64,000 nt of DNA, taken from the sequence record OR067838.1, one strand, 5' to 3'. The translations under genes were made by a program, and so were the position numbers. This document shows positions 60,897-63,473 of this stretch, one piece after another. Within the stretch, counting starts at the first letter, position 1. Each line of letters opens with the position of its first letter. This DNA comes from Escherichia phage KKP 3954. Under the pieces are notes generated by a model. It had not been told where the DNA came from and did no database searches. It worked only from the letters and a program-made list of their open reading frames with translations.

Positions 60897-60913
60897 GTTT
60901 TATTCAATAGATA

Positions 60914-60938
60914 GCAAAAAGCCTCCAATAAGGAGGCC
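60914..60938 (-). terminator. rho-independent terminator closing the tRNA cluster
   Basis: GCCTCC-TTATT-GGAGGC then TTTTT on minus strand. Confidence 0.55.
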
Positions 60939-61053
60939 AATAAATACTGTTAATTTGAAATGCTTTATTATGATTGTGCGTTAAGGAGTCGCACCCCTCC
61001 ATCTTAGAAGGAACCAGGCAAGGTCTTCAAAGATACCGCTGGCAAGCGATATT

Positions 61054-61132
61054 TGGAGGCGGGAATTGGATTTGAACCAATGATCTCCAGCATATGAAAC
61101 TGGCGAGGACGACCAGACTCCTCTATCCCGCT
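61054..61132 (-). tRNA. tRNA-Met (anticodon CAT), initiator-like
   Basis: Manual fold: T-arm ATTGG-TTCAAAT-CCAAT, anticodon loop TTCATAT; 3' CCA encoded; ends approximate by 1-2 nt. Confidence 0.6.
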
Positions 61133-61138
61133 ATCATG

Positions 61139-61208
61139 TATCCCGTGCTGGATTCGAACCAGCGTCACAATAAATTGTGGATCTCTTATCCTGTAAGTCT
61201 AACGGGAA
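61139..61208 (-). tRNA. tRNA-like gene, aberrant (anticodon arm has only a 4-nt loop); possible pseudogene
   Basis: Good T-arm GCTGG-TTCGAAT-CCAGC and 6-bp acceptor stem, but anticodon region folds as CACAA-TTTA-TTGTG. Confidence 0.4.
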
Positions 61209-61210
61209 AC

Positions 61211-61284
61211 TGGTTGTTTCGACAAGAATCGAACTTGTGTCTCACGATTATCAGTCGTGGGTTCTACCATTGAACTACGAAACA
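61211..61284 (-). tRNA. tRNA-Ile (anticodon GAT)
   Basis: Manual cloverleaf: acceptor TGTTTCG/CGAAACA, loop CTGATAA, T-arm ACAAG-TTCGATT-CTTGT, CCA encoded. Confidence 0.7.
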
Positions 61285-61290
61285 TTTAAT

Positions 61291-61367
61291 TGGTCGGAAT
61301 TGCAGGATTCGAACCTGCGACCCTACGCTCCCAAAGCGTATGCTCTACCAAACTGAGCTAAATTCCG
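61291..61367 (-). tRNA. tRNA-Pro (anticodon TGG)
   Basis: Manual cloverleaf: acceptor CGGAATT/AATTCCG, loop TTTGGGA, T-arm GCAGG-TTCGAAT-CCTGC. Confidence 0.7.
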
Positions 61368-61372
61368 TTATA

Positions 61373-61448
61373 TGGCTGGTCTGTCTGGATTTGAACCAAA
61401 CCTACGACAGTCAAAGTGTCGTGTGCTACCGGACTACACTACAAACCA
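61373..61448 (-). tRNA. tRNA-Gln (anticodon TTG)
   Basis: Manual cloverleaf: anticodon stem CGACA/TGTCG, loop CTTTGAC. Confidence 0.6.
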
Positions 61449-61546
61449 ATAAATCATTTAATGAAGGGCAACCAGAAGAAGTGTGAGAGAAGGAGAAAAC
61501 CATGAGTAAAAGAGAAAGTTTTCTGGCAACCCTTTATTAAATAATT

Positions 61547-61620
61547 TGGAGCGTTCTACGAGGATCGAACTCGTGCCGCCGACTTGGAAGGACGGAATGC
61601 TACCGCTACACCAAGAACGC
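61547..61620 (-). tRNA. tRNA-Gly (anticodon TCC)
   Basis: Manual cloverleaf: acceptor GCGTTCT/AGAACGC, loop CTTCCAA, discriminator U. Confidence 0.6.
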
Positions 61621-61631
61621 CCTATATATTT

Positions 61632-61661
61632 ACTATACTACATTTTACTATTTGTTGTCAA
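61632..61661 (-). promoter_or_regulatory. sigma70-like promoter on minus strand (TTGACA, 18-nt spacer, TATAGT) for the downstream tRNA genes
   Basis: Hexamers read from reverse complement just upstream of tRNA-Gly. Confidence 0.5.
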
Positions 61662-61933
61662 GACTTTTATTGATTGGGACAGTGACGAGTATCCCGTTGG
61701 GTGACTAGCCCTACGTTCGGTAAGCTAACTTAAAATAATACAAAACCAAAGTCAAATATTATTCTTCGTTGCTGTCGATGGGAGAGCCGCTTCTCATTTT
61801 GCCCCATCCAACCCTACTCCGGTCAAGTTTCGGGTGACTCTTTTTGTGATCAACACAATACTAAGAACACTGTCTTTCGAGCAGACCTTGTGCACAGGAA
61901 CGACGATCAATCACAATGCTCTTAATGTTGTGT

Positions 61934-62008
61934 TGGTGCTCCCACACTGAATCGAACAGAGATCCACGGATTACAAAACCGTTGTAATAGCCATTATACT
62001 ATAGGAGC
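61934..62008 (-). tRNA. tRNA-Thr (anticodon TGT)
   Basis: Manual cloverleaf: acceptor GCTCCTA/TGGGAGC, loop TTTGTAA. Confidence 0.6.
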
Positions 62009-62014
62009 AATGCT

Positions 62015-62091
62015 GGGACTCGGCAGGATTCGATACCTGCAATTCCAGAAGCCTATTGGCGACTGGGGGTTTACCTTAACTCTACAAGTCC
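62015..62091 (-). tRNA. tRNA-like gene, anticodon unresolved (irregular anticodon arm, 8-nt T-loop)
   Basis: 7-bp acceptor stem GGACTTG/CGAGTCC and T-arm GCAGG-TATCGAAT-CCTGC, but no canonical 5-bp/7-nt anticodon arm. Confidence 0.4.
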
Positions 62092-62098
62092 ATAATTC

Positions 62099-62184
62099 TG
62101 GCGATGAGTATAGGATTCGAACCTATATTGTTCTTTCGAACACGGATTAACAGTCCGCCGCTTAAACCGTTCAGCCAACTCATC
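62099..62184 (-). tRNA. type-II (long variable arm) tRNA with Asn anticodon GTT
   Basis: Perfect 7-bp acceptor GATGAGT/ACTCATC, discriminator G, CCA encoded; anticodon arm CGGACTGTTAATCCG; variable arm GTTC-GAAA-GAAC. Confidence 0.6.
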
Positions 62185-62190
62185 TTAATT

Positions 62191-62278
62191 TGGTGGTGAG
62201 TGATGGAGTCGAACCACCCGAATCGCAATGATAACAGATTTACAGTCTGCCCCGCTACCCCTACGGAATTAACTCACC
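62191..62278 (-). tRNA. tRNA-Tyr (anticodon GTA), type II
   Basis: Anticodon arm GCAGA-CTGTAAA-TCTGT; discriminator A; CCA encoded. Confidence 0.65.
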
Positions 62279-62409
62279 TAAATACTAATATTTAAATTCT
62301 TTTTAAAATAGCCAGTGTTCGCACCACTAACTATGAGTTATCGGTAAGATGGTGGGGGGCTATCTTCCGAAAGTTTACTCTATTAAAGTAAGCTACATTA
62401 AAAAGAACT

Positions 62410-62495
62410 TGGCGGTAGATGTAGGACTCGAACCTACACGCCGTTTCCGACTACAGTTTAGCAAACTGTCGTGGCTACCATTTCACCAATCTACC
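62410..62495 (-). tRNA. tRNA-Ser (anticodon GCT), type II
   Basis: Anticodon arm ACAGT-TTGCTAA-ACTGT; long variable arm; discriminator G. Confidence 0.7.
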
Positions 62496-62500
62496 TAATC

Positions 62501-62591
62501 TGGCGGAAGGAGGGAGAGTCGAACTCCCAAGGCTCTTTCAAGCTCGGCGGTTTTCAAGACCGTTTTCGTCGCCACATCGATTTGCCCTTCC
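62501..62591 (-). tRNA. tRNA-Ser (anticodon TGA), type II
   Basis: Anticodon loop CTTGAAA; T-arm GGGAG-TTCGACT-CTCCC; long variable arm. Confidence 0.65.
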
Positions 62592-62599
62592 ATACTTAT

Positions 62600-62629
62600 A
62601 ATCTAACATAAAATAATGATTGTTGTCAA
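62600..62629 (-). promoter_or_regulatory. possible sigma70-like promoter on minus strand (TTGACA; -10 TAGATT) upstream of tRNA-Ser
   Basis: Hexamers read from reverse complement. Confidence 0.35.
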
Positions 62630-62825
62630 TACTTTTTTAAAACATTTTACCATGAATGGTGACTCCACCAACCCCCGTTCTCCACGAACGGTGCTCTTCG
62701 AGCATTTATGTCTTCTAATATAACCGTGGCCTTTGTTTATAATGTCTGACATACTTGCCTCATTCTCTGCCACCATGATCAGTAGTGGGTTCAAATCACT
62801 TGAGCTAATTCATGTTAAAATGTTC

Positions 62826-62900
62826 TGGTGTCTTTACAAGGAATCGAACCTTGACTAAGAGTTTAGAAGACTCCTGTGCTATCCATTACACCATAAAGAC
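62826..62900 (-). tRNA. tRNA-Arg (anticodon TCT)
   Basis: Acceptor GTCTTTA/TAAAGAC; loop CTTCTAA; T-arm CAAGG-TTCGATT-CCTTG. Confidence 0.65.
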
Positions 62901-62902
62901 GT

Positions 62903-62977
62903 TGGTGGCCCTGGCTGGTTTCGATCCAGCTACCTATCGGTTATGAGCCGACAGCTCTCCCATTGAGCTACAGGGCC
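62903..62977 (-). tRNA. tRNA with anticodon CAT, Ile2 (lysidine)-type by resemblance to E. coli ileX; alternatively elongator Met
   Basis: Acceptor GGCCCTG/CAGGGCC; loop CTCATAA; 5' and 3' ends resemble E. coli tRNA-Ile2. Confidence 0.6.
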
Positions 62978-63183
62978 ATAAATGTGGTAACAGAGACGCT
63001 GACGATTGTAGAGAACCGCTACATTCTCTAAGACCAAGCCCAACTTTCAGCGTAAAAGTTCTTGAGCCGAGACTATTCCTTTTCCTCTTTGGTAGCTAAC
63101 CTCTGAAGAAGTAGTCTCTAACACTATCCGCAGTGCAAGCCCCTCTTAACAAAAGTCAACGACCCTGTTACCACACTTGATGA

Positions 63184-63210
63184 ACGTATCCTAACATATG
63201 AAGGATACGT
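63184..63210 (-). terminator. 8-bp perfect inverted repeat ACGTATCC...GGATACGT (hairpin downstream of minus-strand gene 63225..63473)
   Basis: Read directly; no clear U-tract. Confidence 0.3.
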
Positions 63211-63224
63211 TTGTCAATAGTTAT

Positions 63225-63473
63225 TTAAGCATATTCTGCTACTTCTTCACTATCTTTCTTTTCCAGAAGAGCAACAACCAAAGCTTCTGCGTTAAAAGTA
63301 TTAATTTCAAGATCCATCTCTCGCATCAGAGCCAAGAAATCAATAACTTTAACATCTTTAGTGATTACAATAGAAGTTGTACCATTGTTTTCAGATGTGT
63401 ATTTTTCTGGATGGAAAAGAAAAACTGCATTGCCGTTACCATCTTCAAACACGTGTTTTTCTAATAGAGACAT
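63225..63473 (-). CDS. small hypothetical protein (start at internal ATG with AGGAGG RBS rather than track start 63539)
   Basis: AGGAGGAACA then ATG (MSLLEKH...). Confidence 0.45.
   Translation of the reverse strand: MSLLEKHVFEDGNGNAVFLFHPEKYTSENNGTTSIVITKDVKVIDFLALMREMDLEINTFNAEALVVALLEKKDSEEVAEYA

Follow-up and report, generated by a model that had tools for sequence, protein, structure and literature searches.

The sequence analysed here (the window) is the whole 64,000-nucleotide (nt) stretch of Escherichia phage KKP 3954 in record OR067838.1. Its source is a Phapecoctavirus, with positions 60900-63250 showing 98% identity to phAPEC8-like Escherichia coli myoviruses of the subfamily Stephanstirmvirinae. 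The minus strand of this region carries a transfer RNA (tRNA) cluster (61057..62977) of 14 elements: 12 canonical tRNAs, each with an encoded 3' CCA, and two non-canonical elements, which we call E1 (61139..61208) and E2 (62015..62091). Both lie 5-10 nt from the adjoining tRNAs and fall within predicted promoter-to-terminator units. A first-pass annotation, made from the letters of the window, had placed two tRNA-like genes here, and the Rfam tRNA model (RF00005) returns exactly these bounds, on the minus strand.

E1 is a 70-nt tRNA-like RNA gene (first given as 69 nt) that reads, from 61208 to 61139, UUCCCGU-UA-GACUUACAGGAUAAGAGAUC-CACAA-UUUA-UUGUG-AC-GCUGG-UUCGAAU-CCAGC-ACGGGAU-A. Its T arm (61147..61163, GCUGG-UUCGAAU-CCAGC) is canonical, with a 5-base-pair (bp) stem and a 7-nt loop of the UUCRANY type. 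The acceptor stem had been called canonical as well; of the seven pairs expected, it has 6 bp and a U1.U69 mismatch at the first pair. The D arm (61180..61199) is extended, with outer pairs G-C and A-U, a 3-nt bulge, an inner CUUA/UAAG helix and the loop CAGGA, which contains the GG doublet. The anticodon arm is replaced by a 14-nt hairpin (61166..61179) with a 5-bp stem, CACAA/UUGUG, and a 4-nt loop, UUUA (61171-61174), just as the first-pass annotation had described it. Because the helix is closed by 4 nt where a 7-nt anticodon loop is expected, E1 in this predicted fold cannot present an anticodon. The stability of the fold relative to shuffled sequences corresponds to z = -2.7.

E2 is a 77-nt tRNA-like RNA gene that reads, from 62091 to 62015, GGACUUG-UA-GAGUUAAGGUAAACCC-CCAG-UC-GCC-AAUA-GGC-UU-CUGG-AAUU-GCAGG-UAUCGAAU-CCUGC-CGAGUCC-C. 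As first noted, its acceptor stem is a full 7 bp (GGACUUG/CGAGUCC) and a regular anticodon arm is lacking. That position is occupied by a 22-nt interrupted hairpin (62045..62066, CCAG-UC-GCC-AAUA-GGC-UU-CUGG) formed by 4 bp, an internal loop, 3 bp and a tetraloop (62054-62057), preceded by a C run of variable length. The T arm (62023..62040, GCAGG-UAUCGAAU-CCUGC) has a loop of 8 nt (62028-62035) in place of 7. The first-pass annotation gave this length correctly, whereas the 9-letter string it quoted takes in the last G of the stem; the loop itself is UAUCGAAU. According to the Rfam tRNA model, the D arm is G-(A)-GUU/AACC with one bulged A and the loop AAGGUA. The shuffle z-score of the fold is -3.7. 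An alternative pairing of the anticodon region gives a 4-bp stem and a 7-nt loop, GCCAAUA, with C in place of U33. We infer that E2 could show an anticodon solely through this weaker pairing, which lacks U33 and is broken by a natural C31>A change.

Neither element has an anticodon arm with a 5-bp stem, a 7-nt loop, U33 and a purine at position 37, nor does either encode the CCA of its 12 neighbours (E1 is followed by CAUGAU and E2 by AGCAUU). The Rfam tRNA model, run on each small region separately, scores E1 at 24.3 bits and E2 at 20.3 bits, both below the gathering score of 29 bits. Among the 12 neighbouring tRNAs, all but one reach 39-72 bits under Rfam; the exception, Ser(UGA), matched tRNA-Sec at 35.7 bits (threshold 47). 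ARAGORN calls E1 and E2 at -ps80 only and neither at default settings. Its intron and mitochondrial modes did not rescue either one, and lowering the threshold led to doubtful 'Leu(CAA)' calls. When all 64 kb were scanned for such structures on both strands, perfect 7-bp acceptor pairing together with a T arm was confined to this cluster, E2 included, whereas the 6/7 acceptor pairing of E1 was reached about seven times by chance.

Other classes of RNA do not account for the two elements. No other Rfam family matches E1 or E2 at E-values up to 10, the plastid untranslated-region matches being on the opposite strand and far below threshold. A weak match to YrlA (RF02553) sits on tRNA-Ile/Pro, with none at E1 or E2 at E-values up to 10, and none of the nine open reading frames (ORFs) nearest the elements encodes a TROVE domain (Ro60). 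The standard ARAGORN search for tRNAs and transfer-messenger RNAs (tmRNAs) finds no tmRNA in the window, and E1 and E2 are only 70-77 nt long. A small protein across E2, where one relative annotates a coding sequence, is excluded by insertions and deletions in the C run.

Conservation of E2 and recurrence of its T loop

The first-pass annotation had proposed a comparison with related phages, and the same defects do recur, in 75 phage records for E1 and 87 for E2. Copies of E2 in these 87 records are 94-100% identical, and the examples fetched share the 8-nt T loop. Blastn matches to E2 are confined to Phapecoctavirus and its sister genus Justusliebigvirus, at identities of at least 94%. Identities within the cluster were taken from per-feature BLAST, a whole-cluster MAFFT alignment having misaligned loci of unequal extent and been dropped. 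When the Tyr-Asn-E2-Thr stretch is aligned between the two genera, E2 differs in 3-4 of 78 columns, compared with 36/87 for tRNA-Tyr, 23/83 for tRNA-Asn and 20/72 for tRNA-Thr (Fisher p = 3e-8). This corresponds to a divergence of 4-5% for E2 against 28-41% for the flanking tRNAs and approximately 22-31% for spacer B. The Tyr, Asn and Thr tRNAs have accumulated many compensatory stem changes between the genera, whereas the stems of E2 are unchanged.

Ten distinct variants of E2 reveal seven variable columns, five of which fall in the anticodon arm or in the C-run junction just 5' of it. Two of these reflect the length of the C run (4-6 C), and a C>U change within the run turns the first CCAG/CUGG stem pair into a wobble, so that it still forms. 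The remaining two columns show C>A in the internal loop of the arm and U>G in the tetraloop. The sixth column lies at the base of the T stem, where G-C becomes G.U and pairing is preserved, and the seventh is the discriminator. The acceptor stem and D region do not vary, and the T loop is identical in all 10 variants. The C31>A change breaks the anticodon stem of the alternative 'cloverleaf' but is without consequence for the extended hairpin. The C-run polymorphism alters the spacing between the D and anticodon arms, a variation that a decoding tRNA would presumably not tolerate.

In the IMG/VR contig L007, the upstream tRNA-Asn is swapped for unrelated sequence, and E2 is 100% identical from 8 nt 5' of its start. 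Since the sequence is kept despite this changed context, E2 is, by these comparisons, a discrete and strongly constrained unit. None of the canonical tRNAs compared is close to E2. In Escherichia phage MirsaeidiM_Esher1 (L109:254-384), E2 contains an internal tandem duplication of approximately 48 nt that covers the D region and anticodon arm, and may be genuine or stem from misassembly.

The UAUCGAAU T loop of E2 also occurs in tRNA-shaped elements of approximately 140 unrelated viral contigs (IMG/VR loci L009-L105 and L183-L228, for example L194, L212, L207, L017, L072, L013 and L071). The complete arm GCAGG-UAUCGAAU-CCUGC is present in 98 IMG/VR contigs, whereas the three arms in which another base (C, G or U) takes the place of the inserted A account for 19 contigs altogether, making A approximately 15-fold commoner than each other base. 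With E2 copies set aside, 96 elements in 70 sequence clusters remain, and 54 of the 96 have perfect 7-bp acceptor pairing, compared with 9 for a control 7-mer. The same loop on a second T stem (GYGGG...CCCRC) is found in 47 further contigs, with perfect acceptor pairing in 32.

Most of these elements have D loops of the AAGAUA(GA) type, and in the anticodon region they carry a long insert or a short, non-canonical arm. Many combine a tRNA-Leu-like D arm (GCGGAAGAUAGACGC) with a long insert. Others are 60-80 nt long, with D loops such as AAGAUA or AAUAGA and loops of 3-8 nt at the anticodon position; among 21 short elements, one of them a copy of E2, this loop is 4 nt in six and 7 nt in six. 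A few have a plausible 7-nt anticodon loop (AUCGUAA in L196). A called tRNA or tmRNA lies within 300 nt of 19 of 97 elements. In the 16 loci tested, no Rfam family matches the elements at its gathering score, the matches there being other tRNAs and tmRNAs. ARAGORN calls one of the 101 elements sharing the T arm as a tRNA, and nine once the extra A is removed; among variants of E2, only those with GCCAAGA become callable by this repair. That so few are callable after the deletion means the T loop is not their sole defect. E2 has the T arm, a 7-bp acceptor stem and a D loop (AAGGUA, of the AAG.UA(GA) type) in keeping with this provisional class, which is not a described family; the set was gathered by exact T-arm match, so the likeness need not mean common descent with E2.

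The E1 family

E1 is found in 75 phage records, and the examples fetched share its short anticodon loop. Within Phapecoctavirus, this loop is UUUA, CUUA or CUA (3-4 nt) and the top stem pair is A-U or G.U; in phiWec188 the loop is 3 nt. Among the GenBank records inspected, none annotates E1 or E2. Homologues of E1 are present in E. coli Vequintavirinae (A7_1, UPEC06 and LTH01), in the Klebsiella phages NDO71 (Mydovirus) and 05F01 (Stephanstirmvirinae), in the Drexlerviridae phage phiEB49, where the element is annotated as tRNA-Val(AAC), and in the Enterobacter phages SonariX and SABI. Further homologues occur in Schitoviridae: those of Gamaleyavirus are labeled tRNA-OTHER, tRNA-Undet or, in one record, tRNA-Thr, and that of Kaypoctavirus KP8 is annotated as tRNA-Leu. 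One Gamaleyavirus member is listed as 'tRNA-Undet-NNN' without comment in a genome paper (PMC11927229). The D-arm/T-loop pattern of the family finds no member in 185,579 bacterial and archaeal species (one genome each), the archaeal matches being unrelated tRNAs, and scans of metagenomes and IMG/VR return the same phage lineages and no others.

We propose a structure for the family from an alignment of 19 sequences. It consists of a 7-bp acceptor stem, U8-A9, an extended D arm, a 5-bp anticodon stem, a 2-3-nt variable region and a canonical T arm. The D arm contains two outer pairs, a 3-nt bulge, an inner CUUA/UAAG helix and a GG-bearing loop. Of the 19 sequences, 12 have G-C and seven have A-U at its outer pair 11-28, whereas the inner pairs C12-G24 and U13-A23 and both D-loop G residues are invariant. 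Overall, 94.9% of cells are paired, and both sides change in 12 of 23 pairs, compared with 0-4 when partners are slid by 1-3 columns; none of 500 shuffles reaches the observed covariation. A covariance model built from the family (R1) gives 76-88 bits for members, whereas no canonical tRNA exceeds 37.8 bits and E2 reaches 20.9. The window's E1 (85.1 bits) and the other training sequences match by construction; near-duplicates outside the alignment score 77-88 bits. E1 and E2 are mutually unrelated, E1 belonging to a multi-lineage family that is found in phage sequences only and E2 being near-invariant and confined to two sister genera.

The variable part of the family is the anticodon loop, which ranges from 3 to 9 nt. 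It is 7 nt in E. coli Vequintavirinae (CGUAUCG or CGUCUCG, with G at 33 and a pyrimidine at 37) and in phiEB49 (UUAACAA), 8 nt in KP8 and NDO71 (CAGGCAUG) and in Gamaleyavirus (UAAACCAA), and 9 nt in SonariX and 05F01 (RACUUAAGA). Within two of these sublineages, the loop is constant while the stem covaries, with two compensatory pairs in KP8/NDO71 and one in SonariX/05F01, which suggests that the loop matters there. Members are often the first or last element of a tRNA cluster; such an edge position argues that they are not needed as spacers. Most encode a CCA, which is missing in the window's E1 and a few Gamaleyavirus members (ST4 and SP5M). With the shortest loop and a mismatched first pair, the window's E1 is the most reduced member. 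The best match to E1 outside the family is a tRNA-Arg(CCU) adjoining the phiEB49 member, with a similar D loop (ACAGGAUAA). Since its margin over other tRNAs is small, a tRNA-Arg origin of E1 is only a lead.

Phages carrying E1-family members also contain other unusual elements. In 05F01, a 68-nt reduced element (L124:189-256) has a normal anticodon arm (loop GUGCACA, anticodon GCA) and almost no D arm, and a second element of approximately 48 nt (~L124:352-400), between tRNA-Asn and the E1-family member, consists of little beyond an acceptor stem and a short T arm. Odd tRNAs are located in KP8 (L114:351-425), Gamaleyavirus (L125-L129, ~482-560) and phiEB49 (L112:610-686). One such tRNA has a 6-nt anticodon loop and is reported as 'tRNA-???(ca)' by default ARAGORN. 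An A at position 34 is not normal in bacteria, save in Arg-ACG. Others of these odd tRNAs carry A34 (Ile-AAU and Val-AAC), as does a Cys-ACA tRNA described in a phage with an E1-family member (PMC11927229).

Possible roles of E1 and E2

E1 and E2 very probably descend from tRNA genes. They share their cluster position and the design of their acceptor and T arms with phage tRNAs and with the tRNA pseudogenes recorded as 'tRNA-OTHER', 'tRNA-Undet' or 'tRNA-Pseudo'. They differ in their sub-threshold scores, in lacking a 7-nt U33 loop and a CCA, in the 8-nt T loop of E2 and in a pattern of conservation that is not one of decay. Of the first-pass proposal that they are tRNA pseudogenes, descent and loss of decoding hold, whereas simple decay is at odds with the conservation of E2 and the covariation of the E1 family.

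Since the elements are kept almost unchanged across related phages, working mimics are likelier than sequencing errors or decaying genes. Our preferred reading, which we put forward tentatively, is that E1 and E2 are selectively maintained, non-decoding tRNA mimics; the tRNA-like decoys or regulatory RNAs suggested in the first-pass annotation are compatible with all the findings and come under this reading. Transcription would start at sigma-70-type promoters that the elements share with the phage tRNAs. RNase P requires no more than the acceptor/T-arm helix as a substrate. Because E1 and E2 retain this helix and most of the D/T elbow, they would probably be excised by RNase P at the 5' end and by host 3' nucleases, as for the adjoining tRNAs. 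The excised RNAs would take no part in translation and could act through their tRNA-like body, occupying a protein that normally binds tRNA. Candidate targets are host defence nucleases that cleave tRNA and other tRNA-directed factors, to which they would offer no cleavable anticodon loop.

A more specific version of this proposal, which we regard as plausible but doubtful, holds that E2 and the E1 family, and perhaps also the class with the UAUCGAAU loop at large, are dedicated anti-defence decoys, without an anticodon and not cleavable. Produced in bulk from tRNA operons, they could titrate tRNA-cleaving or tRNA-modifying immune effectors or some other host tRNA-binding factor.

Several observations count against functional mimicry. 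The decoy role, which takes about half of the weight we give to functional non-decoding mimics, is read from shape, and the promoters and terminator are predicted from consensus matches. High-identity islands are not unique to E2, as tRNA-Ser(GCU) also reaches 96-98% identity between Phapecoctavirus and Justusliebigvirus. A blastn search of E. coli genomes returned no sequence similar to E2, a 77-nt query against 28 Gb being an insensitive search. Within Phapecoctavirus, E1 has a mean identity of 95.6%, compared with 94.3-100% for the tRNAs, 10 of 12 of which are at 97% or above. Its substitutions avoid paired positions weakly (p = 0.11), and its loop length varies within the genus. The window's E1 could be a dying copy of an otherwise functional family. 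From these comparisons, function appears well supported for the E1 family and moderately so for the window's copy.

It is also possible that the elements are relics kept as processing punctuation, that is, as RNase P or 3'-end signals that free the flanking tRNAs, the excised RNAs being inert. The spacing of 5-10 nt to the neighbours would suit such a role, the acceptor and T arms are the best-kept parts, and the two reduced elements of 05F01 retain little else. Nevertheless, a structural signal should allow compensatory changes, as the neighbouring tRNAs do, and the stems of E2 are fixed between genera. Mimics are favoured here because E2 is constrained in sequence, whereas a pure processing signal needs structure alone. 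They are favoured too because the E1 family maintains its D-arm sequence, D-loop GG and anticodon stem, none of which RNase P needs, and because its members are often at a cluster edge, where no spacer is required. E2 likewise persists in L007 without its upstream tRNA, and deletion of a relic would do equally well.

It is unlikely that E1 and E2 are non-functional pseudogenes, dead tRNA genes en route to loss for which too little time has passed, although E1 is the likelier of the two to be such a relic. In favour of this, neither element has an anticodon loop or the CCA that all neighbours keep; E1 has its first-pair mismatch, a polymorphic loop length and more divergence within the genus than most true tRNAs; and E2 is internally duplicated by 48 nt in one genome (L109). 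Decay should, however, bring a spacer-like substitution rate and lost pairing. Neither is seen in E2, which diverges several times less than the neighbouring tRNAs and spacer B, nor in the E1 family, whose homologues in other phage subfamilies retain every stem by compensatory changes; the argument is weak for E1 within its genus, given the p value of 0.11. Presence in 75-87 records also speaks against loss in progress.

The near-identity of E2 between genera might instead stem from recent recombination or gene conversion, or from a DNA-level signal, and not from selection on RNA. A shared host species would give the phages of both genera the chance to recombine, tRNA-Ser(GCU) is a second such island, and the near-identical block extends beyond E2 by approximately 10 nt into tRNA-Asn and 25 nt into tRNA-Thr. 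However, both islands end at the boundaries of RNA genes, the conserved flanks comprise an acceptor strand and a D arm, which tend to be conserved in tRNAs anyway, and E2 is unchanged in L007 despite its other upstream context, while the C-run insertions and deletions exclude a coding frame. A recombination tract at E2 is unlikely, and we give this explanation as a whole little credence.

That the elements are working decoders with unusual loops, such as frameshifting or otherwise atypical tRNAs, is very improbable. Plausible triplets do exist in the 7-9-nt loops of the E1 family (UAU/UCU in Vequintavirinae, AAC in phiEB49 and CUUAAGA within the 9-nt loop), and E2 has the alternative 7-nt loop GCCAAKA. 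Against this, the loop of E1 is 4 nt in the window and 3 nt in one relative, leaving no presentable anticodon; the alternative fold of E2 lacks U33 and is broken by C31>A; its D-to-anticodon spacing shifts with the C run; and no CCA is encoded. Sequencing indels, raised in the first-pass annotation, or assembly errors in normal tRNA genes have nothing in their favour beyond the look of single-site defects. They can be dismissed, as 75 phage genome records for E1 and 87 for E2, produced on many platforms and in many laboratories, show the same features.

The elements may be compared with several known systems. Phage tRNAs that counter host defence presumably replace a cleaved host tRNA in translation. 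The T5 tRNA-Lys is reported to rescue infection against PARIS (PMC11464382) and the T5 tRNA-Tyr against a retron effector (PMC11555353), and anticodon-loop variants of phage tRNAs are linked to tRNA-cleaving defence (PMC10264068). These are tRNA-shaped phage RNAs whose departures from host tRNAs concentrate at the anticodon loop, a context that makes a decoy reading of E1 and E2 plausible. The difference is that E1 and E2, for want of an anticodon loop, could not replace a tRNA and would have to act by binding. The tRNA-like domain of YrlA, a bacterial Y RNA (RF02553), is likewise a non-decoding mimic of the tRNA body that tRNA enzymes recognise, and it occurs in some phages (PMC4201824). Where a tRNA has free ends, YrlA has a stem that binds Ro60, and its gene lies beside that of Ro60, whereas E1 and E2 have no such stem. 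The tRNA cluster of phage T4 encodes the stable RNAs 'species 1 and 2' (RNA C and D), of approximately 120-140 nt, which are co-transcribed and co-processed with its tRNAs. Like E1 and E2, these are small RNAs amid phage tRNAs, though longer, and the likeness drawn here is one of description. The eukaryotic mascRNA and MEN-beta tRNA-like RNAs (RF01684) and minihelix substrates are tRNA-shaped, have reduced anticodon arms and are processed by RNase P. The mascRNA and MEN-beta RNAs are unrelated to E1 and E2 in sequence, and the RF01684 match in the window is on tRNA-Arg.

In the literature searched, we found no paper describing E1, E2 or the UAUCGAAU T loop, and the anti-defence phage tRNAs reported there are all working tRNAs. 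If E1 and E2 were decoys, they would represent a counter-defence strategy distinct from the known supply of replacement tRNAs; if they act on tRNA-binding proteins as mimics, they would form a new class of small phage RNAs and offer a handle for finding their targets. Even as processing relics, they would illustrate that 'pseudo-tRNA' calls in phage genomes can conceal conserved RNAs. Their interest stems from the unusual conservation of E2 and the breadth of both signatures. The E1 family spans several enterobacterial phage families, and annotation pipelines miss it or mislabel it as tRNA-OTHER, tRNA-Undet, tRNA-Val or tRNA-Leu. The covariance model and T-loop signature from this work can be used to find such RNAs.

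The surrounding tRNA cluster

The 12 canonical tRNAs of the cluster are Met/Ile2-CAU, Arg-UCU, Ser-UGA, Ser-GCU, Tyr-GUA, Asn-GUU, Thr-UGU, Gly-UCC, Gln-UUG, Pro-UGG, Ile-GAU and Met-CAU. ARAGORN finds 10 of them at default settings, and Tyr(GUA) and Ser(UGA) were added by Rfam and relaxed ARAGORN. Three predicted units make up the cluster, delimited by promoter-like sites (TTGACA-N18-extended -10) at 63217, 62629 and 61661 and by a single terminator-like hairpin. A candidate sigma-70-type promoter at 62600..62629 (minus strand; TTGACA-18-TAGATT with a TG extension, 10/12 consensus matches) precedes the sub-operon Ser(UGA)-Ser(GCU)-Tyr-Asn-E2-Thr, and another at 61632..61661 (minus strand; TTGACA-18-TATAGT, 11/12 matches) precedes Gly-Gln-Pro-Ile-E1-Met. 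At the end of the cluster lies an intrinsic-terminator-like hairpin (60920..60938, minus strand), GGCCUCC-UUAUU-GGAGGCU followed by UUUUU. Downstream on the same strand are lysis-type genes (a spanin is annotated in one relative) and genes for the terminase large subunit, portal and prohead protease.

Three tRNA-free stretches of 213-313 nt on the minus strand (62978-63190, 62592-62825 and 61621-61933) have no Rfam match at E-values up to 10; in place of the last, spacer C, Justusliebigvirus has a 108-amino-acid ORF. Many relatives have an insertion of approximately 90 nt between tRNA-Pro and tRNA-Gln (for example L003:984-1058) that encodes a second tRNA-Pro(UGG) and is missing in the window. 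The spacer between tRNA-Gly and tRNA-Gln (61449-61546), which is 95-100% conserved within the genus, forms a long hairpin on the minus (tRNA) strand (z = -5.2), with a pyrimidine-rich, anti-Shine-Dalgarno-like loop (UCUCCUUCUCUC). Its plus strand contains AAGGAG (61490-61495) followed by an ATG at 61502 and a 12-codon ORF, MSKRESFLATLY, that extends to 61540.

The spacer between tRNA-Ser(GCU) and tRNA-Tyr (62279-62409) is also structured (z = -3.3) and has no Rfam match. Homologues with 69-78% identity occur in Justusliebigvirus and E. coli Vequintavirinae, and one was recognised by eye in Klebsiella phage 05F01. The apical part of its central hairpin (CGGAAGAU...AUCUUACCG) seems to vary in a compensatory fashion, and the spacer might itself represent a further conserved small RNA of such tRNA clusters.

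Two of the canonical tRNAs are themselves unusual. The T loop of tRNA-Met/Ile2(CAU) (62906-62977, minus strand), annotated as tRNA-Ile-CAT in one relative, is AUCGAAA, with A at positions 54 and 60. We take this to be the pattern of eukaryotic initiator tRNA and not of bacterial tRNAs. tRNA-Asn(GUU) (62102-62184, minus strand) has a 12-nt extra arm (UUCGAAAGAACA) that is kept with compensatory changes in Justusliebigvirus, and thus combines the long-variable-arm build of tRNAs for Ser, Leu and Tyr with an Asn anticodon.

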